Positions 24,868 to 63,284 of a DNA stretch of 64,000 nucleotides are shown here, one piece after another. A model generated the notes under the pieces. It ran no database searches and was not told the DNA's origin. It saw only the letters and a program-made list of their open reading frames with translations. The position numbers were made by a program, and so were the translations under genes. The DNA comes from an uncultured Acidobacteriaceae bacterium (GTDB taxonomy: Bacteria; Acidobacteriota; Terriglobia; Terriglobales; Acidobacteriaceae), in assembly GCA_963800045.1 (NCBI GenBank), contig CAWCZN010000003.1, positions 260,730 to 324,729 on the forward strand. The letters are read 5' to 3'. Every line of letters begins with the position of its first letter. The stretch's first letter is position 1.

Positions 24868-24894
24868 TTCGTAAGAACCGTTGCAGGAGAACGA

Positions 24895-25743: not shown

Positions 25744-25750
25744 GGGAATC

Positions 25751-26452
25751 ATGAAACTGGTTATTTGTGCGGGACCTCCTACGTGTGGCAAGACCACTGT
25801 TTTGCGGCAAGTCACCAAACGCCTTTTAGCTAAACAGCGCAAAGTCAGTTTTCTGAAGATCGACGTGCAGTATGCCGACGAAGACGAGATCTTTCAGAAA
25901 GAGTTTTCCATCCCGACGCGCAAGGTTTACTCCGGGGAGCTTTGTCCCGATCACTGTACTGTGATGGTGCTTGGCGATGCATTGCATTGGGCTGAGCAAA
26001 GCGGTGCAGACCTCTTGATTGTCGAGACAGCTGGGCTGTGTTTGCGCTGCTCCCCCTACGTCGAAGGACTTCTCGGGCTGGTCGTACTAGAAGCCACCAG
26101 CGGTATGAACCTTCCGCGCAAGATCGGACCGATGCTTTCGTTGGCCGATGTGGCTGTCGTAACCAAGATCGATCTGGTCTCGCAAGCCGAGCGCGAGGTT
26201 TTCCGGGCTCGCATCCAGGAAGCGGCGCCGGCGACGGCAATCGTTGAATCCAACGCGCTCTACGGTATTGGGATCGAGCCCCTGGTACGCGGAATCGAGC
26301 GCGCTGCCGAAGTTGAACCTCCTCTGTTCCTGCGGGGCAATCCACCCATCGGTACTTGCACTATCTGTGTCGGGAAGAAGGAGATCGGCTGGCAGTCACA
26401 CTTCGGAGTTGTCCGAGCGCTGGAGAACCAGAACTTCTATCGCGGGGAGTGA
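25751..26452 (+). CDS. G3E-like P-loop GTPase (HypB/UreG/CobW-type metallochaperone fold), Cys-rich
   Basis: MKLVICAGPPTCGKTT is the Walker A. LIVETAGL is the Walker B / switch II. VVTKIDL is an NKxD-like motif. Cys/His motifs are ELCPDHC, GLCLRCSPY and GTCTICVGKK. The start at 25751 has GAGGGA upstream and lies 7 nt after the previous stop. Confidence 0.75.
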   Translation: MKLVICAGPPTCGKTTVLRQVTKRLLAKQRKVSFLKIDVQYADEDEIFQKEFSIPTRKVYSGELCPDHCTVMVLGDALHWAEQSGADLLIVETAGLCLRCSPYVEGLLGLVVLEATSGMNLPRKIGPMLSLADVAVVTKIDLVSQAEREVFRARIQEAAPATAIVESNALYGIGIEPLVRGIERAAEVEPPLFLRGNPPIGTCTICVGKKEIGWQSHFGVVRALENQNFYRGE

Positions 26453-26455
26453 GAT

Positions 26456-27658
26456 ATGGCGGACCGCATCTACTTCGATCACTCCGCCACCACGCCGCTG
26501 GATCACCGGGTTGCGATGGCCATGGACCTGGCGGAGGAGACATTCGGTAATCCTTCCAGCCTGCACTCCGAGGGACGCCATGCCCGTGCCCAGGTCGAGA
26601 AAGCGCGAGGCCAAGTGGCTGCGCTAATCCACGCGAACCCGGAAGAGATCATATTTACATCGAGCGGCACCGAGTCCGACAACCTGGCTTTGCTGGGTGT
26701 CTTCCGCGACAGCGATCAAAGCTCTCCGGGCCACATGATCACGAGTGCAATCGAGCATCCCGCGATTATCGAGACTTGCCGGTTTCTGGAGCGGACTGGT
26801 GTCGAAGTGACGTGCCTCGGTGTAGATGCGAACGGACTCGTGGATCCCGATGACCTGACGAAGGCGATGCGGCCCGAAACTCGGCTGGTTTCTATTATGG
26901 CTGCGAACAATGTGGTGGGAACTCTGCAGCCCATCGCAGAATTAGCTCGCATCACGAAGGAACATGGAGCCCTGTTTCATACCGATGCAGTGCAATCCAC
27001 AGGCAAAGTGCCGCTCGATGTGACTCGGATACCGGTAGACATGGTGTCGATGTCGGCCCATAAGCTGCATGGCCCGAAGGGTGTGGGCGGGCTCTTCGTT
27101 CGCGAGAATCTTCGAAAAGGTGGTCGCAACGGAGCACGCCTGCAGCCGGTGGTCTTCGGCGGAGGACAAGAATACGGCCTTCGCTCTGCCACCGAGAACG
27201 TCAGTGGAATCGTCGGATTCGGCGCGGCGGCTGAACTGGCCGCCTCTGAGATGACCGGCGAAGCGGCGCGACTGGTCCAGTTGCGTGAATACCTGTCAGA
27301 CGGTCTGCGAGAGCAACTTCCTCAGACCTACCTGATCGGCCATCCCTTCAAGCGGCTCCCCGGGCATCTTTGCCTGGGATTCGCCGGGCAGGAGGGGGAG
27401 GCGATCCGATTATTGCTCAGTCTGGACGAAGCCGGCGTGGCGATTTCATCCGGCAGCGCTTGCAGTGCCCACAAAGTATCCGAACCTTCATATGTTCTGC
27501 TCGCGATGGGATTCAATCCTATCCGCGCGCGAGGTTCTCTTCGTATCACCCTTGGACGCTTCAATACGAACGCGGAAGTCGACCGCCTTCTTGAGATTTT
27601 GCCGCAAGTGGTGAATTCACTCAGGCCGGTCGCCAGTTACGCCGGCTTTAGCCGCTAA
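26456..27658 (+). CDS. nifS: Cysteine desulfurase, NifS/IscS type (class V aminotransferase)
   Basis: YFDHSATTP, FTSSGTESDN, SMSAHKLHGPKG (PLP-lysine context) and SSGSACSA (active-site Cys loop). 400 aa. The start lies 3 nt after the GTPase stop. Confidence 0.92.
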   Translation: MADRIYFDHSATTPLDHRVAMAMDLAEETFGNPSSLHSEGRHARAQVEKARGQVAALIHANPEEIIFTSSGTESDNLALLGVFRDSDQSSPGHMITSAIEHPAIIETCRFLERTGVEVTCLGVDANGLVDPDDLTKAMRPETRLVSIMAANNVVGTLQPIAELARITKEHGALFHTDAVQSTGKVPLDVTRIPVDMVSMSAHKLHGPKGVGGLFVRENLRKGGRNGARLQPVVFGGGQEYGLRSATENVSGIVGFGAAAELAASEMTGEAARLVQLREYLSDGLREQLPQTYLIGHPFKRLPGHLCLGFAGQEGEAIRLLLSLDEAGVAISSGSACSAHKVSEPSYVLLAMGFNPIRARGSLRITLGRFNTNAEVDRLLEILPQVVNSLRPVASYAGFSR

Positions 27659-27676
27659 TTAAGGGAGATGCTTACG

Positions 27677-28378
27677 ATGTCTGAAACAGCACAAGTGAAA
27701 TTGCCCGGCTTGGACTGCGGTCTCTGCGGATTCAAGCACTGTGATGATCTGGAGCGGGAGCTTGTTCTGCGCCCGGAACTTCTAAAACGATGTCCCCAGA
27801 TTCCGGAGGCAGCGGCCAGCGTTGGTTCGGCAGGCGCTAACCCTTCAAGCGGGACGTCTGTGGCGTCGTCCTCAATGGCTTCTGCTAGTCCTCGCTCTAG
27901 CAAGCTACCGCCATTCGTCGATAATCTGGGCCGAGATTTTGATTTCTATCTGGAGCATTTTCCTGAAGATCCCGGGCCGCGCGAGATCATCATTCCTCAT
28001 AACCCAATGATCACTCGGGAACTCGATATCAAGAAAGGCGACATTCTGATCGGCCGCCCATTGGGTATGTCGTGCGGTTGTCCCATCACACATTGCGGCT
28101 TCGTCGTGGAAGTGGATCACCGCACCGGTGTAATGGTCTGGTGTGTCACCGGTCCGCTGGCGCCGCGCGCGCAGGGCTTCAAAGACTTGGGATACTACAT
28201 TGCAGAAGGCTACGAAGGATTGATCACCGAGACCAAGTCCGAGATCAGAATTGGCTGCCGCTACTACTTCCAACCTCGGATGTGCATGTTGCAGTGGCGC
28301 CACTCTGGGCTGGTGAATTACATGAACCGAACCAAAGAAGGAATCCAAGTGAGGGTCGAAGGGCTCTGGATCGGCTAG
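27677..28378 (+). CDS. Fe-S-motif protein: RnfB/CdhD-like N-terminal CxxCxxxxC...C motif, Ala/Ser linker, and an unassigned Cys-rich C-domain
   Basis: LPGLDCGLCGFKHCDDLERELVLRPELLKRCPQ, then a low-complexity linker (AAASVGSAGANPSSGTSVASSSMASASPRSS), then a ~170-aa domain with GMSCGCPITHCGF, WCVTG, IGCRYYFQPRMCMLQW. The ORF track start is 27668. The ATG at 27677 has better spacing from AAGGGAG. Confidence 0.75.
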   Translation: MSETAQVKLPGLDCGLCGFKHCDDLERELVLRPELLKRCPQIPEAAASVGSAGANPSSGTSVASSSMASASPRSSKLPPFVDNLGRDFDFYLEHFPEDPGPREIIIPHNPMITRELDIKKGDILIGRPLGMSCGCPITHCGFVVEVDHRTGVMVWCVTGPLAPRAQGFKDLGYYIAEGYEGLITETKSEIRIGCRYYFQPRMCMLQWRHSGLVNYMNRTKEGIQVRVEGLWIG

Positions 28379-40534: not shown

Positions 40535-41896
40535 TCAATGCAAATTCAGGCAACCCGCTCCTGAATCGCCACCAGTAACGCTGAAGCGCATTGACCGAAA
40601 ATCGAAACTATAGCTTGCAAAGAGGCCAAGCACATTCTGGCCGATGTTTCCGTAGAATTCGTCTGTCGAGTTGCTATGCTGGGTCAGAATATCCACCGAC
40701 TGCGGCCTCACACAGTGTCCGTCAACACTTGCCACGAGGTCGACTACTTCATACGCCATAGCGACGACGCTGCCACCGGCGCCTAAAATCTCCAATGTGC
40801 GCAACTGGTCAGCATCTATGCTGGTTTCACCCTCACCCAAAAACGCCCTGGAGAGAATGGTTCCGATCGCCCCCGTATCGACTGTGAATAGCCGATCTCC
40901 GTGCCCGAGATCGGCGATCACCACCGGCGTAAACTTCTCCAGAAACATATTGTGTGACGTGGAATTGCCCGGCCTCGTCACAAGTGAATCAGCAAAATGT
41001 ACGCTCGCGCCTTGAACGACGCTTACTTCGCCCAATGCCATAAGAACCGGCAGCCCCAAGCACCCTTCGATTCGGTAATTCATCGATGGGAAGGTTAAAT
41101 CGGAATCCTCAACCACCAGTACCGCCACGTTCCGGATCAGTGCGGGTCCTAGCTGAATCTGGGGAATGATAGCGACCCGGACTGGGACAGGATGTCCGGA
41201 GGATGCCGCCGCATCGGCGGTTCTGGTGGAAACCGCCAGACCCAGCCGGTCAGCAACTGATCTGGATACAACGGACAGATTCGCGCCCGTATCGAGGATC
41301 CAGCTTCCGGTATAAGTCCCCACATTGACCGGAACCCGAAGTAGGCCAAGAGAATCGTTGCTGCCGCTTAGGGCGAAGGGGCCACTACTCTGAATGGTCT
41401 GGGGTGGTGCTCCGTCCAGCAACGCCCAGCGTGCTGCCTCGTGGCGCGCATTACAGGTAGATTCTGTATGGTTTGCCTCCGAGACGAGGGCTGCCTGCAG
41501 GTACGTGTTTGCGGCCTTACCATAACGGAAGCCTCTTGCATAATTGTCGGCAAGCGTACATAGTGCATATTCTGCATGCCCGGGATTGCTAATCAGAAGG
41601 CCTGAAATAAGCGGCTGAAGAAGGAGTGTCGATCGGTCCACCAGGTTTATTCGATTGGCCAACACTCCTTCGAAGTACGTGCGATCTTGCGCTGTGAGTC
41701 GAGCCTCTCGGGCCGTGAGTTCAAGTTCAAACTTGTCGTATTGCTTTCGTGCAAGCAACAGATCGAGATCTGGAGACTTAGCTGGCGGCTGCTCTGCAGA
41801 CAACGGACAGCTTGCGCAGATTAAGATCGCAATTACACCACCCGAGACGATACATCGTATGATTGCATTCAGTCGCGAAATAAAGATTTTTGCCAT
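40535..41896 (-). CDS. Exported protein with two retropepsin-like aspartic protease domains
   Basis: The N-terminus has a hydrophobic signal/anchor (GGVIAILICASCPLSA). There are two D-T-G active-site motifs: GSWILDTGANLSVVS and RLFTVDTGAIGTILS. A helical N-domain precedes them. Confidence 0.72.
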   Translation of the reverse strand: MAKIFISRLNAIIRCIVSGGVIAILICASCPLSAEQPPAKSPDLDLLLARKQYDKFELELTAREARLTAQDRTYFEGVLANRINLVDRSTLLLQPLISGLLISNPGHAEYALCTLADNYARGFRYGKAANTYLQAALVSEANHTESTCNARHEAARWALLDGAPPQTIQSSGPFALSGSNDSLGLLRVPVNVGTYTGSWILDTGANLSVVSRSVADRLGLAVSTRTADAAASSGHPVPVRVAIIPQIQLGPALIRNVAVLVVEDSDLTFPSMNYRIEGCLGLPVLMALGEVSVVQGASVHFADSLVTRPGNSTSHNMFLEKFTPVVIADLGHGDRLFTVDTGAIGTILSRAFLGEGETSIDADQLRTLEILGAGGSVVAMAYEVVDLVASVDGHCVRPQSVDILTQHSNSTDEFYGNIGQNVLGLFASYSFDFRSMRFSVTGGDSGAGCLNLH

Positions 41897-42109
41897 GTCT
41901 CATCAGATCATTATCATGGCATGCGCAATGTAAATTCTGACTAAGTTCTAGGTGAGTCTGAGGTAAGTTCCTGCGAGCGGAGCTGGGATGACACCCCCTC
42001 CCTTGCGAAGTGGTCGCCGAACAAATCCGCAGTGTTTGAGAGCGCACAGCCTGTGGATTCGAGTGGCATACCCTCATCGTCGTAAGGCTATGGCGTGCGC
42101 GGCCGCTCG

Positions 42110-42253
42110 TCACATATCTTCACCCATCGCCTGTGAGCGCGTGCTAGGTACGTTTCCGGTCGCTGGGAATCGCGACGCCCCAAAGGCGGACAGCTCGTCG
42201 GCTTGAAAGCCGCCTCGCTGATCCGAGGAGAGCAGCTGGCGGCTCACCTTCAC
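42110..42253 (-). CDS. Possible mini-ORF (47 aa) 3' of the radical SAM gene
   Basis: A GTG start is preceded by GGAGGAACCCT. The product is (M)KVSRQLLSSDQRGGFQADELSAFGASRFPATGNVPSTRSQAMGEDM. It has no Cys, I recognise no homology, and it could be a chance ORF. Confidence 0.2.
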   Translation of the reverse strand: MKVSRQLLSSDQRGGFQADELSAFGASRFPATGNVPSTRSQAMGEDM

Positions 42254-42386
42254 AGGGTTCCTCCAGAAGTGTGGGGCCTTTCTCACACCGGCAGCCAGAA
42301 CGGTCTCTTCAGCGGCCTGCTCCGTTCTTAAATCCCCCGACAGCAGCCAAGGAAGCCGTCGCGAACTGAGACTCTCGTCACGGCGC

Positions 42387-43784
42387 CTACCACTCGAACG
42401 ATATCGTCGTGTCGCGATCCCAGTGCTCCCACAGAAACGCATCGTGACGGTCGTCGGCGATGAGGCGCAGGGCGTAGCGCACCTGGTCTTCGTACAATTC
42501 GCAGAAAGCGCCGGTACGGTCCATGCCGCCATTCATCTCGTAGGCTTCGGCAGGGCAGGGAGAGCCGCAAAAGTGGCGTACGGCGCAGCGGCGACACGGA
42601 TCGATATCTTCGACCTTGCGTCCGGTGACCAGCGCGAAGGGCGGCGTCGCCAGGATGTCGTCGATCGAATCGCGGAACAGGTTGCCGCCTTTGAAACTCG
42701 GCAGGCCGAGAAATTCGCTGCACGGGAAAACGTCGCCATTGGCCGAGAGTGCAAAAAAGCAACGTCCGCCGCCGCACGGGGAGATGTCACACATCAGGCG
42801 GCGAGCCTGTGGCGCCAAGATCGAGATCAGGATGTTCGCGAAGTTCGCGACGACCATGCGGCGTCCCGTCTCGCGATAAAGCTCCTCGGTACGATCCAAC
42901 GCCGCGAGGTAAAAGCGGCTGATGTCTTCGTCCTTCGGCTTGATGTCGCGCGCGCCCTGGCGGGTGCAGCGCACCGGATTCAACATGCAGGTGGTCACGC
43001 CGCGTTCGTGAAAGAAGTCCACTGTCGGGATCAGCTTGTGCACGTTCTCGCTAGTGATGGTGCAGATCACGCTGTAGTTAGGGTAGCCTCGTAGCTTCTC
43101 CATCGCAGCCACGACCTTGTCGTAGATGCTGTGCCTGTCCCAGGTCTTGCGCGTGCGCGTAACGATTTCATCAAGCGATGAATCGAGGGACAAACCGACA
43201 GCGACACCCAGCTCCATCAGCACGTCGTATTGCGCGTCGGTCAGCACCGTGCCGTTGGTCTGGATGCCGAAGCGGAAGTCCTCGCCGTAGCGTTCGAAGG
43301 CAGGTAGCATTGCGTCCCAGTTCAAGGTTGGTTCGGCACCATGGAAGACAATTTGCGGTCGGAAGCCTCCGGGTAGGTGAGCGCAAAAATACTGTTTCAG
43401 AATCTCTAGCGCCGACAACACATGTTCGACCGGCATGTGAATGCCATCCTTGCGCATGGACTCCGGCAGGTAGCAGTACGAGCAGTTCAGATTGCAGCGC
43501 TCGGTAGGATTGAAGTATACGGCAGAGGGGCTGACGTTGAAGCGGAAGCGATGCATCTCTTCGGCGAATGCGGCGGCTTTTTCGCGATACTGATCGAGGA
43601 ACGGTCCCGGCGTGAGCGCTTCTCCGAGTTTGTCTTTCTGAATCAGAGCCCAGAAGGCGGTGTCGGGGTCGACGACGCCGATGTAATTGTCGTGGCCGAT
43701 GTCGATGGGTTGCAGGGTGCCGCCGATGCCGCTGTTGAAGTGCAGGCCGCGCGATGACGCTTGGGATTTCGTTGCGATATTCAT
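42387..43784 (-). CDS. Radical SAM enzyme with a C-terminal SPASM (twin auxiliary 4Fe-4S) domain; putative peptide maturase
   Basis: FNPTERCNLNCSYCYLP (CX3CX2C) begins at about residue 97. The SPASM signature is CDISPCGGGRCFFALSANGDVFPC ... CRRCAVRHFCGSPCPAEAY ... AFCELY. The preferred start is ATG 43784 (MNIATK) with GAGGA 8 nt upstream; the track start is 43799. Confidence 0.9.
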   Translation of the reverse strand: MNIATKSQASSRGLHFNSGIGGTLQPIDIGHDNYIGVVDPDTAFWALIQKDKLGEALTPGPFLDQYREKAAAFAEEMHRFRFNVSPSAVYFNPTERCNLNCSYCYLPESMRKDGIHMPVEHVLSALEILKQYFCAHLPGGFRPQIVFHGAEPTLNWDAMLPAFERYGEDFRFGIQTNGTVLTDAQYDVLMELGVAVGLSLDSSLDEIVTRTRKTWDRHSIYDKVVAAMEKLRGYPNYSVICTITSENVHKLIPTVDFFHERGVTTCMLNPVRCTRQGARDIKPKDEDISRFYLAALDRTEELYRETGRRMVVANFANILISILAPQARRLMCDISPCGGGRCFFALSANGDVFPCSEFLGLPSFKGGNLFRDSIDDILATPPFALVTGRKVEDIDPCRRCAVRHFCGSPCPAEAYEMNGGMDRTGAFCELYEDQVRYALRLIADDRHDAFLWEHWDRDTTISFEW

Positions 43785-43861
43785 TGGGCAAATCCTCATT
43801 CAAGATCTCGACGCGGCGGATGATGAGAACCATCCGCCGCCATGCAATGCCGTTCCGGCGT

Positions 43862-53271: not shown

Positions 53272-53718
53272 ATGCTCCTGAATCAGGAAGAACTTGTGAG
53301 TCTCCGGAGGAGGTATGGGTACGATACTGGCTGCGACAAAGCGATATTACAAGGCAAACGAATAGCTGTCCGCGCTTTCGATTGTGATAATTACCGTCGG
53401 TGCAAGCAGAAATGTGCGGATTTCGCCAAAACGAGAGAGCCTTTCATCGGCACAGGCTACGAGAAAGGCGCACTGCCACGAATTCTTTTCGTGTCTCTCG
53501 ATCCAGGTCACGCAAGCAAGCACGCCAGCGAAAGAACCGCTGAAGCCCATCGACTGTGGGATCGCTGCGGACTGCTGCCGAAAGAACCGTTAGGTGTCAC
53601 GCATCTCGACATCCTGTTCTTGGTGTCAATCGGTTTGGCTATCTCGCGGCAGGATCCTTGTCCGAATTCTACACGGGGGGAAGCTGGAAACGGGGCCGCT
53701 CATTGCAAGCTCCTCTAG
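53272..53718 (+). CDS. Hypothetical protein, possibly truncated
   Basis: 148-aa ORF with a plausible-looking N-terminal two thirds (CDNYRRCKQKCADF...PFIGTGYEKGALPRILFVSLDPG) but an odd tail. It overlaps the convergent desulfurase gene by 4 nt. I recognise no family. Confidence 0.25.
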   Translation: MLLNQEELVSLRRRYGYDTGCDKAILQGKRIAVRAFDCDNYRRCKQKCADFAKTREPFIGTGYEKGALPRILFVSLDPGHASKHASERTAEAHRLWDRCGLLPKEPLGVTHLDILFLVSIGLAISRQDPCPNSTRGEAGNGAAHCKLL

Positions 53719-54932
53719 TGAACACCAGTAGCGGCAGCAGGTTTCAGCGCATTGTTAGAACGTCCTCGCGCCCAGGATGCGATGTCTGTCATGGCAGCAA
53801 TCGCCGTATCGATTTCTTTCTCGGTGTTGAAGGCGCCGATTGAGAAGCGCACGCCGCCATCGCGTTCGAAGGTTCCAAGTTGCTTATGGACTAGCGGAGC
53901 GCAGTGCAGACCCGTGCGGGTCGCGATATTGTAGTCGACATCGAGCATGACGCCGACGTCGCCTGGGTCGACGCCTTCGAGGTTCATCAGCAGCGTAGGC
54001 AGATGACTCTCCAGAGTGCCGCAGCAATAGAGTTCGACGCCTTCGATCTTGCGGAAGCCCTCGGCCAATCTCTGCGCCAACTTCATCTCCTGCTGGTGCA
54101 CGCGATCTACGCCGTGCTCATCGAGCCAATCCTGTCCGGCCCAAAGCGACGCGATGCCGACGAGGTTAGGCGTTCCATATTCCAAACGCCACGGATATTC
54201 CTCAAGGTGGTAGGGATAAGCGGAGTGCACGCCGGTACCGCCGCTGCGCACCTGCTTAATCTCGACGTGCTTGCGAATGCAGAGCCCACCGATGCCCATA
54301 CTTCCCATCAGCGCCTTGTGCCCGGTGAAAGCCACGACGTCGATATTCATCTCGCGCATGTCGATCGGTATGACCCCGGCGGTCTGAGCGGTGTCGAGGA
54401 CGAAAGTGATGCCACGCTCCCGGCACAGCCTGCCAATCTCCGCTACCGGTTGTACCGTGCCAATCACGTTGGATCCATGATTGACGATGACAAGTTTGGT
54501 ATTCGGGCGCATGGCGCGGGCGATATCGTCAGGATCGACGAAACCGCTGCTGTCGAAGCGGACATACGTCGCCTCGGCTCCATGATCGCGCACCATGTGG
54601 TTCACGGGACGGATCACCGAGTTGTGTTCGAGGTTGGTAATGATGATGTGGTCGCCGCGCGAGATCAGGCCCGGGATGACGAGATTCAAGGCGTCGGTGA
54701 CGTTGTAGCTGAAGACCAGGCGGTCGGAGGCATCTTCATCGCCTCCAAAGAATTTCGTCATGCGCTTGCGCAGGCGATCCAGCAGCGAACCGGTCTCCAT
54801 CGCCAGGTCATATCCGCTGCGGCCGGGATTGACGCCGTGCGTGCGATAGAACTCGTCCATGAAGCGGTAAACCTGCTCGGGTTTCGGCCACCCGGTTGCG
54901 GCGTTATCGAAATAGATCAGCTGGTCTTCCAT
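53715..54932 (-). CDS. Cysteine desulfurase-family class V aminotransferase (SufS/CsdA-like, group II)
   Basis: YFDNAATGWP, NLEHNSV, AFTGHKALMGSMGIGGL (PLP-Lys context) and ATRTGLHCAP (active-site Cys). 405 aa. The start lies 9 nt after the dsrK-like stop. Confidence 0.88.
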   Translation of the reverse strand: MEDQLIYFDNAATGWPKPEQVYRFMDEFYRTHGVNPGRSGYDLAMETGSLLDRLRKRMTKFFGGDEDASDRLVFSYNVTDALNLVIPGLISRGDHIIITNLEHNSVIRPVNHMVRDHGAEATYVRFDSSGFVDPDDIARAMRPNTKLVIVNHGSNVIGTVQPVAEIGRLCRERGITFVLDTAQTAGVIPIDMREMNIDVVAFTGHKALMGSMGIGGLCIRKHVEIKQVRSGGTGVHSAYPYHLEEYPWRLEYGTPNLVGIASLWAGQDWLDEHGVDRVHQQEMKLAQRLAEGFRKIEGVELYCCGTLESHLPTLLMNLEGVDPGDVGVMLDVDYNIATRTGLHCAPLVHKQLGTFERDGGVRFSIGAFNTEKEIDTAIAAMTDIASWARGRSNNALKPAAATGVH

Positions 54933-54941
54933 CGCTGCACC

Positions 54942-56522
54942 TCAGTGAAATTCCCATTGGATGAACGGCTCTTTCAGATCGGACATGGCGTTGACGATCA
55001 GCTCCGCCAGCCCGCCGTAAAGAATTCCAGATTTCTCCCACACTCCGTAGTAGCGGAACAGGTCACGGAACTGGCCTTTGCAATTCGAGCAGGGCGCGCA
55101 AACGTATTTCTTCGTCCGCGGATCGGGGCAATCCACGAAGGCATCCAGCACCTGTTTCAGTTTCATGCGACCCGAGACTAAGAAGCGCCAGTCTTCGAAG
55201 TTGTAGCCGGACATGATGGCGAAACCTGAGCCGCCACCGCAGCAGTAATTCTCGACGCCATGCGGAGTCATCTCGCGAAACTGTGGACAGATGGCACGCA
55301 GGATCTCGCGCTGCGGTTCCACAATGCCCATCATGCGCACCATGTTGCAGGGGTCGTGAAGTGTGACTGGGAAGTCGTTGCGCGCAGGGTCGAGTTTCAG
55401 ACGGCCGCTTCGTACAATGTCGCGCAGCAAGACCAGAGCGCTCTCGCGCGGAATATTCAGGTCGCTGCTCAAAATGCGGTCGGCAGTAACCATCGACGCC
55501 TTGTGTCCGTGGCCACATTCGCCGAGGACGATCTTTTTGACCTTGAGCTTCTTTGCCGCTTCCGCCTGGCGCACGGCAACGCGCGCAAATTGGACGTCGT
55601 CATACCACAGCCCGTAGTTGACGCTGTCGTAACCCATCAGTTCGCTGGACATCGTCCAGTTGATCCCAGCGGCTTCGAGGATGACAGCAAAGGCCATGGG
55701 ATTTTCCGGCCACGCCAGTATCTCTCCTGCATTGTGGATGAGCAGAACGTCGGCGCCTTCCTTATCCCACGGTGTTTGGATATTGAGTCCGGTCTGCTCG
55801 CGAATCTCGTCGTCGAGGAACTCGATGTTGTCGCGCACGGCCGCAGCTTTCATGCCGGTCGACGAGCCGGTGCGCAGTTGCAGCATGGAACCTTTGTCGT
55901 GAATTTCTTTGGGCGCGATACCCAGTTCCATGCTGAAGAGCTTGCGGATCTCGCGGGTCAAAAGCGCGTTGTCGACGCCCATCGGACATGTTTGCGCGCA
56001 GCGGCGGCACAGGGTGCAGCGGTAAGCCGACTCCAGCAAGCGGCACAGCGTGGCCGCGTTTACATCGATGGCTTCGCCCTTCAGCCGCGCCAGCAATTTC
56101 CCGCCCGAGTGTTGCTTGATCAGGCGGCGAAAGACTTCGCTGCGAAAAGTTGGGCGGTAAACTTCTTCGCGTCCGCTGCCCACGTAAACGGGACAGGCCT
56201 CGACGCAGGTCTGGCAGCGCGCGCAATGATCCATCGACAGTTGCAACTGTTTGAGGAACGGCCAATTGTTGTCGGGGCTGAGAAGCTTCTCGATGCCGGA
56301 GAGAAACGCGGAGATGAAGTTCTCTTCTTCTTCGGCGGTTTTCGGAGCGCTGAATCCGAGCGCCGAGAAGCCGTCGAGTGAAGCGTCGTACCTTGGATCG
56401 ACTTGCTTGCGCTTGGGCAGATCAGAAACTTTGTTGTACGGCGCGGGCAGCGGAATCAGCTTGTCTGGATTCAGCTCGCCGAGCATCCCGCCTGCCGTCG
56501 CCATGTCTTCGATCTTAAGCAT
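54942..56522 (-). CDS. dsrK: DsrK/HdrD-like Fe-S protein (two 4Fe-4S ferredoxin motifs plus CCG domains)
   Basis: CARCQTCVEACPVY and CTLCRRCAQTCPMG are CxxCxxCxxxCP motifs. Cys-rich CCG-type motifs are ECGHGHKA, LHDPCNMV, NYCCGGGSGF and CAPCSNCKGQF. The internal ATG at 56522 (MLKIEDM) overlaps the stop region of the upstream gene. The track start at 56690 would overlap it by 176 nt. Confidence 0.82.
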   Translation of the reverse strand: MLKIEDMATAGGMLGELNPDKLIPLPAPYNKVSDLPKRKQVDPRYDASLDGFSALGFSAPKTAEEEENFISAFLSGIEKLLSPDNNWPFLKQLQLSMDHCARCQTCVEACPVYVGSGREEVYRPTFRSEVFRRLIKQHSGGKLLARLKGEAIDVNAATLCRLLESAYRCTLCRRCAQTCPMGVDNALLTREIRKLFSMELGIAPKEIHDKGSMLQLRTGSSTGMKAAAVRDNIEFLDDEIREQTGLNIQTPWDKEGADVLLIHNAGEILAWPENPMAFAVILEAAGINWTMSSELMGYDSVNYGLWYDDVQFARVAVRQAEAAKKLKVKKIVLGECGHGHKASMVTADRILSSDLNIPRESALVLLRDIVRSGRLKLDPARNDFPVTLHDPCNMVRMMGIVEPQREILRAICPQFREMTPHGVENYCCGGGSGFAIMSGYNFEDWRFLVSGRMKLKQVLDAFVDCPDPRTKKYVCAPCSNCKGQFRDLFRYYGVWEKSGILYGGLAELIVNAMSDLKEPFIQWEFH

Positions 56523-57396
56523 GGCGTCCGGCTCCTCGTCCCTCGGCATCGGCGACCGCTTGCGACCACGTCTCGCCTTCCCCCGCGATGTGAGGGGCCG
56601 ACCAGGTAACATGCCGCCGGAGACGTCCGGCAAGTACAGTGTTCGCGGAAGAGACGTGTGCCGCCGGCACGTCGTCCCAGCGCACGCCATGCCAGGTGAA
56701 GAACTTCATGTAAGCGTGGGTCATGTGGGTGAACGGAAAGTAGGCAAGAAAGAACGCGAGAAGCATCAGATGCAAGCTACGAACTGGCGACGCGTCGGAC
56801 ACCAGTGGGACGAAGTTCAACCCTTGAGCAAATTGGCGAGCGATGCCGGTCAGCGACAATCCTCCGGTCACGAAAAACGCCGCGAGGAACAGCAGGTTAA
56901 ACTTTGCTGCGCGCGTCGTGTACGACCGCAGTCGCAGCAGCTTCGTCCGCAGAACAAACAAACCCAGGCTGCCGAGACAGCCGGACACACAACCCAGACC
57001 ACATGTGTATATCGCGAGCCGGAGCAGCATCCCCGAACTCAGCAGCCAACTTGCTGCCATCAGCAGCGCTGCTGCGATGTAAAGGTATAGCCCCCAGTGC
57101 AGCAGCCAGGACCATAGCCACAGCTCGCGAAAGTTCTTGCGCACCGAGTGCAGCAGCAGAACTTCCTGCGCCATGAAGGCCAATTCACCGGTGTGACTGG
57201 ATTCCGCGCGCTTGGTCCACCAATCGGTTTCCTCGAAGTAAGAGCCGCCGTAGCGCTGACGCTCGCAGGGTCCTTTGGGAATGGGGTACAACTCCCATCG
57301 TAAGGGGCGGGGCGTACGCAGCGTTCGCATCACGCGGACGAAGTTTCCAGCGAGGAAGATTGCGGCAGCGATCGCGAGAGTGGGAACGAGCAACAT
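56515..57396 (-). CDS. dsrM: DsrM/NarI-like membrane di-heme cytochrome b family protein
   Basis: 293 aa with about 6 TM helices, including MLLVPTLAIAAAIFLAGNFV, LWSWLLHWGLYLYIAAALLMAASW and SLHLMLLAFFLAYFPFTHMTHAYMKFF. Conserved His residues in the helices fit the respiratory nitrate reductase gamma-like (NarI/DsrM/HdrE) family. Confidence 0.75.
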   Translation of the reverse strand: MLLVPTLAIAAAIFLAGNFVRVMRTLRTPRPLRWELYPIPKGPCERQRYGGSYFEETDWWTKRAESSHTGELAFMAQEVLLLHSVRKNFRELWLWSWLLHWGLYLYIAAALLMAASWLLSSGMLLRLAIYTCGLGCVSGCLGSLGLFVLRTKLLRLRSYTTRAAKFNLLFLAAFFVTGGLSLTGIARQFAQGLNFVPLVSDASPVRSLHLMLLAFFLAYFPFTHMTHAYMKFFTWHGVRWDDVPAAHVSSANTVLAGRLRRHVTWSAPHIAGEGETWSQAVADAEGRGAGRHA

Positions 57397-57422
57397 GGGT
57401 CTTGCTCACTTCGCCGGGCGCG

Positions 57423-57767
57423 TTAAACGCAGCCGGTTGGTTTCGGCAAGCCTGCAACCTTGCAGGCTCCTTTTGCCGGGCCTGAGGGAAACAGCTCGTA
57501 GATTTCCCGCAGCGAGTAGCCGGTTTCTTTGCAGAGCTTGCGGATCATGGGCGCGATCTCGAACTCCTGGTAGTAGCCGCGAATGTATCGAACGACCTTC
57601 CAATGTCCATCGGTCAGTTCACTGACGCCGTCGGCCTGAGCCAGCGCCGCGGCCAGTTGTTCATTCCAAAGTTCGGGCTGCTGAATGAAACCGTCTTCGT
57701 CCACTTCCACCTCGTGACCGTTCCAGCGAAACATCTGCTTTTCGAGATCTGTTGCTGAGGAGCCCAT
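57423..57767 (-). CDS. dsrC: DsrC/TusE-family sulfur relay protein with both C-terminal-arm cysteines
   Basis: The full-length fold motifs are EVDEDGFI, WNEQLA, HWKVVRYIRGYYQEF and PMIRKLCKETG. The C-terminus ...GACKVAGLPKPTGCV has two Cys separated by 10 residues, with the last Cys penultimate. This pattern is diagnostic of DsrC proper rather than single-Cys TusE. Confidence 0.9.
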   Translation of the reverse strand: MGSSATDLEKQMFRWNGHEVEVDEDGFIQQPELWNEQLAAALAQADGVSELTDGHWKVVRYIRGYYQEFEIAPMIRKLCKETGYSLREIYELFPSGPAKGACKVAGLPKPTGCV

Positions 57768-57928
57768 CGCGCCTCCGGCGGTGACACCTTCATGGCGTCG
57801 TCCTGTCCATTATGGTAAGGAAACCCGGAGGCAGAATTACATCCTGACATTCTGGTAATTTTGCGGATTTGCCAACGATTTAGCGGTGAAGCTGGCCAGA
57901 AATTGAAGTTCGTTAAGCTGCTTGCCGG

Positions 57929-58432
57929 TTAGGTTTTGCTCTTGCCTGTCTGTGAAGGGGTCTTTGCGTCGGGGCGGACAATGTTGCCCCATGCCAGAGC
58001 CGTGGAGAGCACCATCAAGGTTGTGGTGGCGACGTAGGGCATCAGAGCGTCAAGCAGTTTTTCCAGGTGGGTGACGTCGGAGACAGCGACCTTCAGCAGG
58101 AAGGATTCGGCGCCGGTCACGCGATGACACTCCAGAACTTCTGGATGAGTGGCTGCCAGCTCCATGAAGCGCGTAAGATTTTCGCCGCCGACCTTCACGT
58201 TGACGAAGGCCTGCATCGGCAAGCCTACTTTTGCGGGATCGATGTGCGCGCGATAGCCGATGATGATGCCGGCCTCCTCCATTTTGTGCACGCGCTCGGT
58301 CACCGCCGGCGTGGAAAGCCCGACCACACGTCCGAGTTCGGCAAAAGGGATGCGGGCGTTCAGTTGTAATTCGCGGAGGATTTTCCAACCGATATCGTCC
58401 AGCAGGTGCTCGATTCCTTTTGTGGTTTCCAA
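57929..58432 (-). CDS. Lrp/AsnC-family transcriptional regulator
   Basis: LDDIGWKILRELQLNARIPFAELGRVVGLSTPAVTERVHKMEEAGIIIGYRAHIDPAKVGL is the HTH_AsnC part. An RAM/ACT-like domain follows (AFVNVKVGGENLTRFMELAATHPEVLECHRVTGAESFLLKVAV). The likely TTG start at 58432 is preferred because the 220-aa track ORF adds an implausible leader. Confidence 0.85.
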   Translation of the reverse strand: METTKGIEHLLDDIGWKILRELQLNARIPFAELGRVVGLSTPAVTERVHKMEEAGIIIGYRAHIDPAKVGLPMQAFVNVKVGGENLTRFMELAATHPEVLECHRVTGAESFLLKVAVSDVTHLEKLLDALMPYVATTTLMVLSTALAWGNIVRPDAKTPSQTGKSKT

Positions 58433-60311: not shown

Positions 60312-63284
60312 ATGGCGTTGACCTCGGGTAGCAAGCTGGGGCCGTACCTCATAGAATCGCTTCTCGGCGCCGGCGGCATGGGCGAGGTTTACCTTGCTCG
60401 GGATACGCGGCTCGAGCGCACGGTTGCAATCAAGATCCTTCCCGCTCACCTGTCTTCCAATCCGGACTTGCATCAACGCTTCGAACAGGAAGCCCGCTCG
60501 ATTTCAAAACTGCAACACCCCAACATCTGCGTCGTTCACGATATCGGCTCGCAAGACGGCATTGACTTCATGGTGATGGAGTATGTCGCCGGTCAGACTC
60601 TCGACAAGCTGATCCCTCCCGGTGGCCTGCCCACCGATCAGGCCGTGAAATACGCCGTGCAGATTGCGGACGCTTTGTCTCGTGCGCATGCTTCGGGCAT
60701 CGTGCACCGCGACTTGAAGCCGGCGAACATCATGGTCGACCAGAGCGGGCTCATCAAGGTGCTCGACTTCGGACTGGCCAAACTGGCGACACCGGCTTCG
60801 CTGGCGGCCAGCGCGGCAGCTCCAATGGCAACCGTGGCGACCATGACGACCACGCCCGGCGTGATCGTCGGTACTCTGGCGTACATGTCGCCGGAGCAGG
60901 CAGAGGGAAAGCCGGTTGATGCCCGCAGCGATATCTTCTCGTTCGGCTCGGTGTTTTACGAGATGCTGAGTGGCAGCAGGGCTTTTGACGGTCAATCCAG
61001 CGCGGCACTGCTGGCGGCGGTGATGCGCGATGAGCCCACGCCCCTCACTCAGTTCAAGCGCGATATTCCGGCCGAAGTGAGACAAATCGTAAGACGCTGC
61101 CTTCGCAAAGACCCGGCCGCGCGATACGCTTCCGGCGCCGAACTCGCACAGGAGCTCAAGACTTGTCGCGACCTGCTATTTCCCGAGTCAGGCGTGACCC
61201 TGAGTCCGGCGCGAATTGCGCGAGAGATCCGGCGCCCACGGATTATGCTGCCCATTCTGCTGGCCGTCATCCTTATTACTGCCGGCGCAGTCTGGGGAGT
61301 GAGACGTGCTCGTGAAGTGCGCTGGGCGCATGAAGTGGCTGTGCCCCAAATCTCCCAACTGGCCGATCAGGGAAAATTCGGGGCCGCTTACGACCTGGCG
61401 ACTAAGGCGGAGAAGCTGATCCCCGGGGATCCGGCGCTGGAGAAATTGTGGCCCCTGATCTCCTACAAGACCTCGCTCGAGAGCACACCGCCCGGCGCTG
61501 ACGTCTTCCGCAAAGGTTACGACGACACGACGGCCTGGCAGCCAGTTGGAAAGACGCCGCTGACGGACATTCGCCAGCCGCGCGGAATGTTTCTCTGGAA
61601 ATTCGAAAAGCCGGGATACGGGACGGTCCTGCGGACGACAAGCGCGTTGTTTGGGTGGTATCCGCCGGCTCCCGGTCATCCCGTGGAGGGGGCTGTCACT
61701 CTCGACGAGGCCGCCAACATTCCTCCCGGTATGGTGCGAGTTTCGCCGGCGCACTATTCCAAGATACTATTCATCCCCGGTTATGAAGGAATGCCCGAGC
61801 TGGATCTGAAGGATTATTGGATCGATCAGTATGAAGTGACCAATCGCCAGTTCAAGGCTTTCGTCGATCAGGGTGGGTACCAGAAGCGGGAGTACTGGAA
61901 GATACCTTTCCGCGACGGCGAGAAACAGCTTTCATGGGACGAAGCCATGGCACGCTTCCGCGACAGCACTGCGCGTCCGGGGCCGAAGGACTGGATCCAG
62001 GGGGAATATCCCAAGGGTCAGGATGACTTTCCAGTGACGGGAATCAGCTGGTATGAAGCCGCGGCCTACGCGGAGTTCGCCGGCAAGAGCTTGCCAACCA
62101 TCTTTCACTGGAACCGGGCCGCAGGTCCGGTTTCCGCATCGTACATTGTGCCCGCCAGCAACTTCGGTCGTGCGGGCATCCTGCCAGTCGGCAGCAAACA
62201 AGACCTGGGGCCGTGGGGCGCCTACGACATGGCCGGCAATGTGAAGGAGTGGATCTGGACCGAGGCTGAGTCGGGCAAACGGTACGTCCTTGGAGGCGCG
62301 TGGGACGAGCCGAACTACATGTTTATCGATCCCGACGCGCAGTCTCCGTTCCTCCGAACCGCGAACATTGGCTTTCGCTGCGTGAAGTACATCGAGCCGG
62401 AGTCCGTGCCCAAAGTTGCCATGGATCCCATGCCTTCTCCGCGCCGCGATCTGTCCAAGGAAAAGCCGGTCTCCGACGAACTGTTCCGCGCTTACCGCAG
62501 CTTGTATTCCTATGACAAGGCTCCGCTGAATGCTACGGTGGAACCCTATGGCAAGGACGAAGAGTTCTGGACCGCGCAGAAAATTACGTACGCCGCAGCC
62601 TACGGAAACGAACGGGCTATCACTTATCTATTTCTTCCGAAGAAGGGTAAGCCGCCATATCAGACGGTCCTGTTTTTCCCCGGATCGAACGCACTTCTGC
62701 TCCGGACCTTCGCCATCTACTCGACCGCATCCCTGGACGCCATCCTGAAGAGCGGCCGCGCCGTGCTGTATCCCGTGTACAAAGGGACGTACGAGCGGGG
62801 AGACGGGATGGAGTCGGACGTAGCCAACACGAGCAGCGCTTGGCGGGATCACGTCATCATGTGGGTGAAGGACGCTTCGCGGGCGATCGATTATGCGGAG
62901 ACGCGCCCCGATCTCAACCACGAGAAACTGGCCTACTACGGCTACAGCTGGGGCGCGGAGTTGGGTGGCTTGATTCCGGCCGTGGATACCCGCATCAAGG
63001 TGAATGTTCTAACCCTGGCCGGATTGGATTTCCATCGGTCGCTTCCTGAAGTGGATGTGATCAACTTTATCTCTCATGTGAAACAGCCGACCTTGATGCT
63101 GAACGGGCGCTACGATTTCTTTTTCCCGGTGGAGGAAACTCAGGAGCCGTTTTACCGGTTGCTCGGGTCGCCCAAAGATCAGAAGAAGCATCTACTCTAC
63201 GAAACCGGGCACAACATTCCCCGCAACGAACTCATCAGGGAAAGCCTCGACTGGCTGGATCTATACCTTGGCCCTGTGAACTGA
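60312..63284 (+). CDS. Ser/Thr protein kinase fused to an FGE-sulfatase (SUMF1/EgtB/PvdO-like) domain and a C-terminal alpha/beta-hydrolase domain
   Basis: Kinase: GAGGMGEVY, AIKIL, HRDLKPANI, DFGLAK, GTLAYMSPEQ. TM segment: MLPILLAVILITAGAVWGV. FGE-like domain: YWIDQYEVTNRQFKAFVDQGGY, PVTGISWYEAAAYAEFAGKSLPT, YDMAGNVKEWI, LGGAWDEP, IGFRCV. Hydrolase: YYGYSWGAELGG (GxSxG), PTLMLNGRYDFFFP, YETGHNIP. Confidence 0.9.
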   Translation: MALTSGSKLGPYLIESLLGAGGMGEVYLARDTRLERTVAIKILPAHLSSNPDLHQRFEQEARSISKLQHPNICVVHDIGSQDGIDFMVMEYVAGQTLDKLIPPGGLPTDQAVKYAVQIADALSRAHASGIVHRDLKPANIMVDQSGLIKVLDFGLAKLATPASLAASAAAPMATVATMTTTPGVIVGTLAYMSPEQAEGKPVDARSDIFSFGSVFYEMLSGSRAFDGQSSAALLAAVMRDEPTPLTQFKRDIPAEVRQIVRRCLRKDPAARYASGAELAQELKTCRDLLFPESGVTLSPARIAREIRRPRIMLPILLAVILITAGAVWGVRRAREVRWAHEVAVPQISQLADQGKFGAAYDLATKAEKLIPGDPALEKLWPLISYKTSLESTPPGADVFRKGYDDTTAWQPVGKTPLTDIRQPRGMFLWKFEKPGYGTVLRTTSALFGWYPPAPGHPVEGAVTLDEAANIPPGMVRVSPAHYSKILFIPGYEGMPELDLKDYWIDQYEVTNRQFKAFVDQGGYQKREYWKIPFRDGEKQLSWDEAMARFRDSTARPGPKDWIQGEYPKGQDDFPVTGISWYEAAAYAEFAGKSLPTIFHWNRAAGPVSASYIVPASNFGRAGILPVGSKQDLGPWGAYDMAGNVKEWIWTEAESGKRYVLGGAWDEPNYMFIDPDAQSPFLRTANIGFRCVKYIEPESVPKVAMDPMPSPRRDLSKEKPVSDELFRAYRSLYSYDKAPLNATVEPYGKDEEFWTAQKITYAAAYGNERAITYLFLPKKGKPPYQTVLFFPGSNALLLRTFAIYSTASLDAILKSGRAVLYPVYKGTYERGDGMESDVANTSSAWRDHVIMWVKDASRAIDYAETRPDLNHEKLAYYGYSWGAELGGLIPAVDTRIKVNVLTLAGLDFHRSLPEVDVINFISHVKQPTLMLNGRYDFFFPVEETQEPFYRLLGSPKDQKKHLLYETGHNIPRNELIRESLDWLDLYLGPVN

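Follow-up and report, generated by a model that had tools for sequence, protein, structure and literature searches.

A conserved operon joining DsrC, an alternative DsrMK pair and a cysteine desulfurase in peat-soil Acidobacteria

DsrC and the membrane complex DsrMK are counted among the components of the DsrAB pathway, and hits to dsrC or dsrMK are used as metagenome markers of dissimilatory sulfite metabolism. What, then, is the role of an operon in which dsrC and a dsrMK-like gene pair are joined to a gene for a cysteine desulfurase, with no dsrAB in view? This question is raised by a stretch of 64 kb (the window) on the 645-kb contig CAWCZN010000003.1 of an uncultured Acidobacteriaceae bacterium (GenBank assembly GCA_963800045.1, sample ERR11571142), within which the operon is flanked by 53 kb and 5.6 kb. 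The operon is conserved across ~30 Terriglobales species, abundant peat Acidobacteria, and recurs in many peat metagenome samples, pointing to an undescribed route of cysteine sulfur to the respiratory chain in peat-soil Acidobacteria. Its parts are all of known kinds; the combination, together with a possibly mono-heme membrane subunit, is new, and it does not constitute a new category of system. Full-text literature searches (DsrC with DsrMK or DsrK, cysteine desulfurase and Acidobacteria or Koribacter; DsrC or DsrK without DsrAB) returned no description of the operon, and the main comparative papers on Dsr do not mention it.

Gene order and conservation of the operon

Inspection of the open reading frames (ORFs) of the window places five of them on the minus strand at 53715-58432, in the order Lrp/AsnC regulator, DsrC, membrane subunit (here DsrM'), iron-sulfur subunit (here DsrK') and cysteine desulfurase. 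The features, in the direction of transcription, are as follows.

57929..58432, minus strand: Lrp/AsnC-family transcriptional regulator, 167 amino acids (aa), probable TTG start; PF13404 and PF01037; first gene of the conserved block
57768..57928, minus strand: Lrp-dsrC intergenic region, putative promoter/operator of the dsrC operon; conserved blocks in a 33-sequence MAFFT alignment
57423..57767, minus strand: DsrC, two-cysteine, bona fide, 114 aa; PF04358, TIGR03342
56515..57396, minus strand: DsrM', predicted integral membrane subunit of the DsrM/NarI superfamily, alternative DsrMK type, 293 aa, ~5 transmembrane (TM) segments; hhalign match to canonical DsrM
54942..56522, minus strand: DsrK', predicted cytoplasmic Fe-S/CCG protein of the DsrK family, alternative DsrMK type, 526 aa; NCBIfam DsrK as best model
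53715..54932, minus strand: predicted type II (SufS/CsdA-like) cysteine desulfurase, TIGR01977 / EF2568 subfamily, 405 aa; TIGR01977, PF00266; last operon gene

A spacer of 161 nucleotides (nt) separates the Lrp gene from dsrC. The initial annotation had described an Lrp/AsnC gene followed by four close-packed minus-strand genes, with 26 nt between dsrC and dsrM', an 8-nt overlap of dsrM' and dsrK', and 9 nt before the desulfurase gene; coordinates and gaps match exactly, the start of DsrK' being set at 56522, the Met that gives the 8-nt overlap. The gene identities it assigned were upheld by family searches, with qualifications for DsrM and DsrK that are set out below. Long plus-strand ORFs over the operon (e.g., 53904-55181 and 55260-56381) were rejected as antisense artefacts of GC-rich coding DNA: family hits and conserved homologues all lie on the minus strand, and the overlapping ORFs were set aside without a family search of their own.

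For the comparison with other genomes, one genome per GTDB species was scanned with DsrK', the best 80 relatives were kept, and gene order in these 80 loci was scored by tblastn with the five window proteins. The whole comparison set comprised 115 sequences (1.72 Mb, window included), with up to 10 kb of flank per locus. Metagenome-assembled genomes (MAGs) of Acidobacteriota contributed 30 of the 80 loci, and other phyla the remaining 50. Among the species-level loci from Terriglobales MAGs, 25 have enough flank for the order to be read, and 23 of these keep all five genes in order; of the other two, one has no Lrp match and one is without DsrM' and the N-terminus of DsrK'. Five truncated acidobacterial loci agree with the order as far as their sequence extends, and all five genes occur together in 45 of the 115 sequences, window counted. 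Since the order is kept at these frequencies, the arrangement is not due to chance, and the doubt first attached to this locus, that synteny with the desulfurase might not be conserved, is dispelled. Identities to the window genes range from 41 to 92% overall (DsrM' 41-67%, DsrK' 68-91%). Furthermore, the genes flanking the five-gene block vary between relatives; because the neighbours change beyond the core, the block appears to be held together by selection and not by recent common ancestry of a larger region. In L024:2517-4108 (MFD10071.bin.2.66), the stretch from dsrC to dsrK' is without the DsrM' gene and about the first 100 codons of DsrK'; either this copy has decayed or the assembly is faulty there.

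The carriers are labelled Acidobacteriaceae, Candidatus Korobacteraceae, Candidatus Sulfotelmatobacter sp., Terracidiphilus sp., Terriglobales or Acidobacteriota, and originate from bog, palsa, fen, SPRUCE peat and Danish soils. The same block is found on many peat metagenome contigs in public assemblies, one DsrC sequence being indexed in 87 blocks. Assemblies with cluster-bearing contigs include GCA_003133445, GCA_003157545, GCA_052915985 and GCA_964420185, and the operon is also present on chromosome OY970265.1, on the 3.8-Mb contig CAWJSL010000003.1 and in CAWIRH01, CAWIOA01, CAVTYG01, CAVSFL01, CAVRID01, JBEKPR01, JBKQRC01, PMAT01, PLQW01, PLXE01, PLIC01, PMMJ01 and PLHW01.

The 50 non-acidobacterial loci, mostly from Thermodesulfobacteriota MAGs (Desulfomonile, Desulfomonilaceae, Syntrophaceae, Syntrophales) with Zixibacteria and one Bacillota in addition, keep only the DsrM'-DsrK' pair at 56-65% identity. 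There the pair lies among housekeeping genes (AAA ATPase, ilvC, 2-oxoacid:ferredoxin oxidoreductase, uvrC), and neither DsrC nor a catalytically competent cysteine desulfurase was found beside it in any of these ~50 loci. Among the loci compared, dsrC, desulfurase and Lrp are joined with DsrM'K' in one operon in Acidobacteriota only.

The proteins and their catalytic and cofactor sites

The window DsrC scores 132.2 bits against PF04358 (cut-off 24.9) and 118.6 bits against TIGR03342 (cut-off 53.5). Its C-terminus, ...GACKVAGLPKPTGCV, holds both redox cysteines in the layout CysB-x10-CysA with CysA penultimate, and includes AGLPKPTGC, the DsrC-specific motif used by DiSCo (PMC8477390). It had been called a bona fide DsrC with both redox cysteines from the outset, and family scores, motif and arm confirm this. 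With the DsrC encoded at the canonical dsrAB locus of Desulfovirgula thermocuniculi it shares 77% identity, and the last 22 residues, which form the C-terminal arm, are the same in both proteins. Among the 22 acidobacterial loci compared, this arm is unchanged in 20 and altered by one residue in each of the other two, and both cysteines are retained throughout. A neighbour-joining tree did not separate cluster-type from canonical copies, the DsrC sequence being too conserved.

The best NCBIfam model for DsrK' is DsrK (NF045796), with 325.4 bits, below the cut-off of 400 and more than 100 bits ahead of the next-best models (TmcB 207, HmcF 192). Across DsrK' and its relatives the DsrK model gives sub-threshold scores of 196-353 bits, as against 412 for the canonical DsrK of the control dsrAB locus. 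Two other assignments were rejected. Models of proteins of lactate, glycolate or glycerol-3-phosphate utilization (LdhH, GlpC, LutA/B or GlcF) reach only 24-41 bits, and the cofactor cysteines of DsrK are all kept, so that the lactate or glycerol-3-phosphate clade considered in the initial annotation does not apply; a two-CCG HdrD is not compatible with a cysteine pattern that has the single-cluster DsrK layout only. The cofactor cysteines (C100/103/106/110, C169/172/175/179, C336, C392, C427/C428 and C475/478/481) form two CxxCxxCxxxC [4Fe-4S] motifs, the GECGH cysteine (C336, in GECGHG) and the CCG motif C392...CC427/428...C478xxC481, in which C392 stands in HDPC. In 73 aligned family sequences C475 is kept in 97% and all others in 100%, and each conserved cysteine aligns with a cysteine of canonical DsrK. 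The last CCG cysteine is kept in alternative DsrK proteins including DsrK', whereas many canonical DsrK have Asp there. The single noncubane-cluster layout and the GECGH cysteine are the catalytic features of DsrK (Barbosa et al., PMC10861901). A scan of DsrK' gave no TM segment, and a sequence search of the PDB found neither a DsrK nor a DsrM.

The pair of DsrM' and DsrK' genes is conserved in all 69 related loci that retain the upstream flank. In a library clustered at 50%, the nearest distinct relative of DsrK' is a protein of Archaeoglobus fulgidus, a 538-aa subunit with 57% identity over its full length; two further A. fulgidus DsrK paralogues reach 45% and 41%, Thermodesulfobacteriota alternative DsrK proteins 56-65%, and canonical DsrK 33%. 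The A. fulgidus genes (AE000782.1, 486553-504118) are arranged as M(308 aa)-K(521)-K(538), beside a divergent M(244)-K(477). By gene order, these match DsrMK(K) AF0543-AF0545 and DsrMK AF0546-AF0547, which have been published for this organism (PMC3949148, PMC10861901), the tags being assigned here. With the 308-aa DsrM paralogue, DsrM' shares 36% identity and the N-terminus MPxHLRWELYP. By these identities and the common N-terminus, the pair belongs to the 'alternative DsrMK' type, which A. fulgidus, Desulfomonile and other sulfate reducers carry as a second copy. The initial identification as DsrMK therefore stands as far as the families are concerned and has to be changed from the canonical to the alternative paralogue type.

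Two side observations concern DsrK'. Its identity to an archaeal paralogue far exceeds that to the bacterial canonical DsrK compared; candidate explanations are an old paralogue under strong constraint and a gene transfer between the domains. In addition, the 90%-identity cluster of the DsrK' representative P0028 also contains desulfurase sequences, and the adjacent genes may have been merged or mis-clustered in some gene calls.

DsrM' matches no Pfam family at E <= 0.01, PF02665 included, which is matched by the canonical DsrM of the control locus and by the 308-aa A. fulgidus paralogue. Against the NarI model TIGR00351 it scores 17 bits (cut-off 105.6), and only faint QmoC and NarI matches were obtained. 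At the level of profiles the relationship is clear: a DsrM' family profile of 21 sequences aligns with canonical DsrM at an hhalign probability of 98.5% (E 2.4e-15) and with the Escherichia coli NarI chains 1Q16_C and 3EGW_C at E ~2e-8. The heme ligands of NarI we take, from the NarGHI structure, to be H56/H205 for the proximal and H66/H187 for the distal heme. In the alignment, H100 of DsrM' corresponds to H56, H227 to H205 and H209 to H187; nothing corresponds to H66, and a histidine at this position is found in no member of the alternative-DsrM family alignment. H100 and H227 are invariant across the family, and H209 is retained solely in the acidobacterial clade and a few others, most Thermodesulfobacteriota members being without it. 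Canonical DsrM has all four histidines; unlike it, DsrM' does not carry the four-histidine, two-heme set of DsrM and NarI. As predicted from this alignment, DsrM' retains both ligands of the proximal heme b but not the full set for the distal one, which suggests a loss of the distal heme b in the alternative-DsrM family. Of the initial description as a NarI/DsrM-like cytochrome b, the homology is thus borne out by the profiles, and one distal-heme ligand is missing. DsrM' has ~5 predicted TM segments, followed by a conserved cytoplasmic tail of ~60 residues that is not present in NarI. Both the tail motif W-H-x-V-R-W-D-D ... W-S-A-P-H-I and the N-terminal motif MPxHLRWELYPxP of alternative DsrM are missing from NarI.

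Type II desulfurases convert cysteine to a cysteine persulfide on the enzyme. The last protein of the operon scores 410.5 bits against TIGR01977 (cut-off 377) and 285 bits against PF00266, and it carries the lysine that binds pyridoxal phosphate (PLP; FTGHK) as well as the catalytic-loop cysteine (RTGLHCAP). Both residues (GHK and R-x-G-L-H-C-A) are found in 24 of 24 acidobacterial orthologues. It is a predicted cysteine desulfurase of type II within the TIGR01977 subfamily, in agreement with its first reading as SufS/CsdA-like. Its gene directly follows dsrK' in most related loci and is shifted by 0.5-1.5 kb in two (L008 and L028). The window holds a second desulfurase, of NifS/IscS type, at 26456-27658 (+), with 447 bits against TIGR03402, below the cut-off. 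Its neighbourhood (24280-28378) comprises an Rrf2 regulator like CymR/IscR (24280-24867), an ABC-ATPase-like ORF, a CobW-family GTPase and then a PF04060 'FeS' protein, and is probably a housekeeping Fe-S or cysteine-metabolism locus. Given this separate NifS-type enzyme with its own Rrf2 regulator, the operon desulfurase would be an additional, specialized paralogue.

In ~13 loci (L014:6497-6889, L089:6996-7331, L004, L005, L007, L009, L015-L018 and L021-L023) an ORF of ~110-130 aa follows the desulfurase or is fused to it. The fusions, 531-aa proteins such as P0392, are true single ORFs on several contigs. The additional domain has several cysteines and matches no Pfam or NCBIfam model; it is not present beside the desulfurase of the window. 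One candidate role is that of an acceptor or adaptor dedicated to sulfur, and in some relatives it possibly serves as the transfer route to DsrC. Frameshift-like splits of the desulfurase were seen in several long-read (contig_-named) MFD MAG loci (L010, L012, L023).

IscS-to-TusE relays are established in E. coli, and the two proteins could in principle form a biosynthetic relay of this kind, with DsrC passing sulfur (or selenium) from the desulfurase to a thiolation or selenation target. DsrC does match the TusE equivalog model, at 90 bits, and the desulfurase the SclA (selenocysteine lyase) model, at 319 bits; TIGR01977 includes SclA. Both scores are far below their cut-offs (191 and 525, respectively), however, and DsrC has the AGLPKPTGC motif and CysB, which TusE does not. 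Neither TusBCD, MnmA, SelD nor another target enzyme is linked to the operon, and a membrane-bound, quinol-linked reductase would have no role in such a relay, which we consider very improbable.

The first gene of the block encodes a protein with the AsnC-type helix-turn-helix domain PF13404 (59 bits) and the ligand-binding RAM domain PF01037 (57 bits), the two domains of an Lrp/AsnC regulator. A longer, ATG-started ORF reaches 58591; homologues of 154-168 aa favour 57929-58432. Lrp homologues occupy the same position in related loci and are 76-88% identical in the acidobacterial ones. When 33 distinct intergenic sequences were aligned with MAFFT and columns conserved in >=80% were considered, the Lrp-dsrC spacer showed conserved blocks at 57901-57918, 57834-57856 and 57810-57818 (-10-like TACCATAAT), followed by GGAGG and the ATG of dsrC. 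The spacer is a probable regulated promoter/operator for the four downstream genes. Generic scans for sigma-70 promoters and for terminators were uninformative.

A route from cysteine to sulfide and the place of DsrAB

Sulfite reductase genes were sought by tblastn (E <= 1e-3) with DsrA, DsrB, DsrD and DsrN of D. thermocuniculi as queries. The locus of this cultured sulfate reducer (L082), which holds fd-dsrA-dsrB-dsrD-...-dsrM-dsrK-dsrC-dsrN within 9.4 kb, served as positive control and was recovered. No homologue of the four proteins was found in the window or in related loci of the comparison set, where only control loci score, and in >45 related loci no dsrAB cluster adjoins the operon within a flank of up to 10 kb. 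Nor did Pfam models reveal another dsr gene or a sulfur-respiration gene among 30 more of the window's large ORFs. The initial statement that dsrAB is not in view thus holds for the window and extends to its relatives: DsrA and DsrB near dsrC/dsrMK, as in the minimal Dsr pathway (DsrABCMK), are absent from both. That the genome of the window carries dsrAB somewhere else we judge about as probable as that it does not.

The observations can be combined in a model that we put forward tentatively, rating it somewhat below an even chance: the operon would encode a module under amino-acid control, in which sulfur from cysteine is put on DsrC by the desulfurase and leaves as sulfide, and DsrM'K' re-reduces DsrC from the quinone pool. 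The five-gene linkage, the tight packing, the intact catalytic and cofactor residues and the absence of linked DsrA/B/D/N all speak for it. In the first step, the Lrp-type regulator would turn the operon on when sulfur amino acids are available. The desulfurase would then, by the chemistry of its family, convert L-cysteine to L-alanine and a persulfide on its catalytic cysteine. From there, as the strict gene linkage suggests, the sulfur would pass to CysA of the flexible DsrC arm, the residue that accepts persulfide sulfur in sulfur oxidisers (PMC3397948). This transfer would be direct, since TusA, DsrE, DsrF and DsrH are not in the operon. Attack by CysB would expel H2S and leave DsrC as an intramolecular disulfide, or the persulfide might be reduced directly at DsrK'. 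Because the desulfurase is the operon's only sulfur-mobilizing enzyme, DsrM'K' probably acts on DsrC as a persulfide or disulfide and not on the trisulfide made by DsrAB. Finally, the noncubane [4Fe-4S]/GECGH site of DsrK' would re-reduce DsrC with electrons that pass from menaquinol via heme b of DsrM' to DsrK'; this step is proposed because DsrMKJOP of A. fulgidus has menadiol:DsrC-trisulfide oxidoreductase activity, via the DsrM hemes and the noncubane cluster of DsrK (PMC10861901). The net reaction would be cysteine + menaquinol -> alanine + H2S + menaquinone. It would provide an electron sink and a route for desulfurase turnover that need neither DsrAB nor free thiol reductants, to the benefit of peat Acidobacteria that live on organic sulfur as fermenters or facultative anaerobes.

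A more far-reaching version, which we regard as possible but less likely than not, is that many peatland Terriglobales without DsrAB use the operon for a 'cysteine-sulfur respiration', with the desulfurase placing the zero-valent sulfur of cysteine directly on DsrC and the alternative, possibly mono-heme DsrMK reducing this sulfur to sulfide with electrons from quinol. If this were true, DsrC/DsrMK would be a self-standing respiratory module independent of DsrAB, and organic sulfur mineralization and cryptic wetland sulfide would be tied to the energy metabolism of abundant Acidobacteria.

Several points weigh against the proposed route. Menaquinol reduction of a persulfide or disulfide is thermodynamically doubtful, a problem shared with canonical DsrMK, and without an equivalent of NarI H66 DsrM' may have one heme only, leaving its quinol site and electrogenicity uncertain. 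In the relays that are known, sulfur travels between a desulfurase and DsrC or TusE through TusA and DsrEFH or TusBCD, none of which is in the operon. Other points concern the hosts and favour a different explanation, to which we give a lesser but serious chance: the operon may be an accessory branch of a complete Dsr pathway, with dsrAB(L)(MKJOP) elsewhere in the genome, or a second DsrC/DsrMK set for sulfite respiration. In the former case, the desulfurase would load DsrC in place of TusA/DsrEFH, DsrM'K' would oxidise the persulfide to the trisulfide with electrons going to quinone, and DsrAB/DsrL would produce sulfite. The DsrC is indistinguishable from the reductive type of sulfite reducers, and an arm identical to theirs could still need to fit DsrAB. 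The alternative DsrMK clade otherwise occurs mostly in dsrAB organisms as a second copy (AF0543-0545 in A. fulgidus; Desulfomonile/Desulfomonilaceae MAGs), and DsrAB is present in 67 of 74 bacterial assemblies that belong to the basal DsrMK clade (PMC10504309). All carriers are Terriglobales of peatlands; the label of one of their loci is Candidatus Sulfotelmatobacter sp., and S. kueseliae, which has dsrAB, is a member of that genus. NCBI taxonomy places this genus inside Candidatus Korobacteraceae, the label of another carrier, and we dropped an argument from the absence of Koribacteraceae in the census of dsrAB genomes for this reason. The same census contains three dsrAB-positive 'Bog-209' species with two dsrC and reports dsrEFH in no Terriglobia (Diao et al. 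2023), and the sulfur route to DsrC in these bacteria is called unknown by Hausmann et al.

On the other side, no DsrA/B/D/N lies within 10 kb of the operon in >45 loci, nor in the 53 kb and 5.6 kb around the window copy. In the dsrAB-bearing Acidobacteria SbA1-7, the single listed dsrC is inside a compact dsr locus that holds all dsr genes, dsrM2K2 included (Hausmann et al.), and these MAGs are not among the best 80 relatives of the DsrK' scan; for these two reasons the operon is not simply a mark of a Dsr genome. The dsrAB-positive S. kueseliae and T. gaucii have one dsrC each (Diao et al. 2023) and are likewise not among the best 80. Assemblies of dsrAB-positive Terriglobales include GCF_900290255, GCF_900290245, GCA_003132325, GCA_003139095, GCA_003139995, GCA_003162255 and GCA_003162935. 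The operon-bearing assemblies GCA_003133445 and GCA_003157545 do not appear in the census of 950 dsrAB genomes, a weak argument since it lists species representatives only (Diao et al. 2023, Table S1).

The consequences differ with the hosts. Where they have no DsrAB, the operon would mean a DsrAB-independent use of DsrC/DsrMK that turns organic sulfur into sulfide with a respiratory link; where they have it, the operon would fill a gap, as the means by which DsrC is loaded with sulfur in Dsr-bearing Acidobacteria, where DsrEFH is absent. In either case it offers a testable candidate source of sulfide and of 'cryptic' sulfur cycling from organic sulfur in wetlands, and a way into the function of the uncharacterised 'alternative DsrMK' paralogues that classical sulfate reducers possess. 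It also calls for caution, in that dsrC or dsrMK hits alone are not evidence of sulfite reduction.

Neighbouring genes and related systems

The genes around the operon bear on its function in several lineages. A methionine-gamma-lyase-like PLP gene is divergent from Lrp in 16 loci (480-496 bits, best model but below its cut-off); the window itself is without it and has a glyoxalase-family gene as divergent neighbour. Recurrent neighbours in relatives are RND efflux genes, OsmC, and an ECF sigma factor with a zf-HC2 anti-sigma factor; in one lineage there are also genes for rhodanese, for a thioredoxin like ResA and for a transporter of YeiH type. In two lineages (L107-L110, 14361-20318; L113, 14626-20318) the operon stands beside [FeFe]-hydrogenase genes (HydA-like, NuoF- and NuoE-like) and those of the maturases HydE, HydF and HydG. 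Because structural and maturation genes of the hydrogenase adjoin the operon there, these hosts should be capable of anaerobic metabolism, and the carriers appear to be fermentative or hydrogen-metabolizing Acidobacteria. The methionine-gamma-lyase-like, rhodanese and hydrogenase genes fit sulfur-amino-acid catabolism and anaerobic life.

Some of the same neighbours would also suit a module against thiol-disulfide or persulfide stress, in which DsrC is kept reduced by DsrM'K' from the quinone pool and detoxifies reactive sulfur from cysteine and methionine breakdown, while the desulfurase feeds the Fe-S clusters of DsrK' or detoxifies cysteine in parallel, without direct hand-over to DsrC. OsmC, the ECF sigma/anti-sigma pair, RND efflux, ResA-like thioredoxin and rhodanese agree with such a function, and the Lrp-type regulator and the methionine-gamma-lyase-like gene suggest control by amino-acid excess. 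These stress-related neighbours vary by lineage, however, whereas the desulfurase follows dsrK' in most loci and bears or precedes the conserved 110-130-aa domain in ~13; the window has its separate housekeeping desulfurase, and DsrC is not known as a general reductant. We therefore hold a stress module to be unlikely.

Lrp-family control of sulfur amino acid catabolism is known from mdeR-mdeAB (methionine gamma-lyase) of Pseudomonas putida and DecR-cyuPA (cysteine detoxification) of E. coli. The loci described here resemble these systems in the Lrp/AsnC gene beside, and in the 16 loci divergent from, a methionine-gamma-lyase-like gene, and in that the genes under control would serve to break down sulfur amino acids; they differ in that the operon combines a desulfurase with respiratory-type DsrC/DsrMK and not a lyase or desulfidase alone. 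With the route from IscS/rhodanese via TusA and DsrEFH to DsrC in Allochromatium vinosum (PMC3397948), and with the E. coli chain IscS-TusA-TusBCD-TusE, the proposed route has in common a desulfurase/sulfurtransferase source of persulfide and the penultimate cysteine of a DsrC/TusE-family protein as end point. It is distinguished from both by an acceptor tied to a quinone-linked reductase, instead of to rDsrAB or MnmA.

Among respiratory systems, DsrC/DsrMK(JOP) of A. fulgidus (AF0499-0503, PMC10861901) is alike in its two-cysteine DsrC, in the DsrK layout (two [4Fe-4S], one CCG, GECGH) and in the NarI-type partner. Unlike canonical DsrMKJOP, the operon is without DsrJOP and has no DsrAB/D/N nearby, and it encodes a DsrK that is only 33% identical to canonical DsrK and below the NCBIfam cut-off, and a DsrM that has no PF02665 match and lacks one distal-heme ligand. 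Adjacency of dsrC, dsrM and dsrK is common to the operon and the canonical Firmicute dsr locus, where the order is dsrM-dsrK-dsrC. The alternative DsrMK of A. fulgidus (AF0543-AF0545) and the dsrMK-only pairs of Desulfomonile and Syntrophales are of the same protein clade, with the MPxHLRWELYP motif in common; in A. fulgidus and the ~50 non-acidobacterial loci they occur as a pair alone or as M-K-K, without DsrC or a competent desulfurase, whereas here they are joined to both. Like HdrDE of methanogens and HmcF/TmcB of Desulfovibrio, the pair has the architecture of a thiol/disulfide reductase with a CCG domain and a membrane anchor. Two CCG clusters are present in HdrD, in contrast to the single cluster of DsrK', for which TmcB and HmcF also score well below DsrK, and neither metabolism of coenzymes M and B nor multiheme cytochrome partners are found here.

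The remaining large ORFs surveyed in the window encode regulators, kinases, efflux systems, BamA, an IS110 transposase and a radical-SAM/SPASM protein. The IS110-family transposase (DEDD_Tnp_IS110 and Transposase_20) is located at 11188-12288 (-), between two PD40 beta-propeller genes. Three large Ser/Thr kinase genes, at 60312-63284 (+), 20758-23703 (+) and 8141-10279 (-), encode fusions, one with an FGE-sulfatase (formylglycine-generating-enzyme-like) domain, one with TPR repeats and one with PD40 repeats. The radical-SAM/SPASM protein (42387-43799) is encoded near a retropepsin-like aspartyl protease (40535-41896), and the locus (40535-43799, minus strand) may be one of peptide modification.

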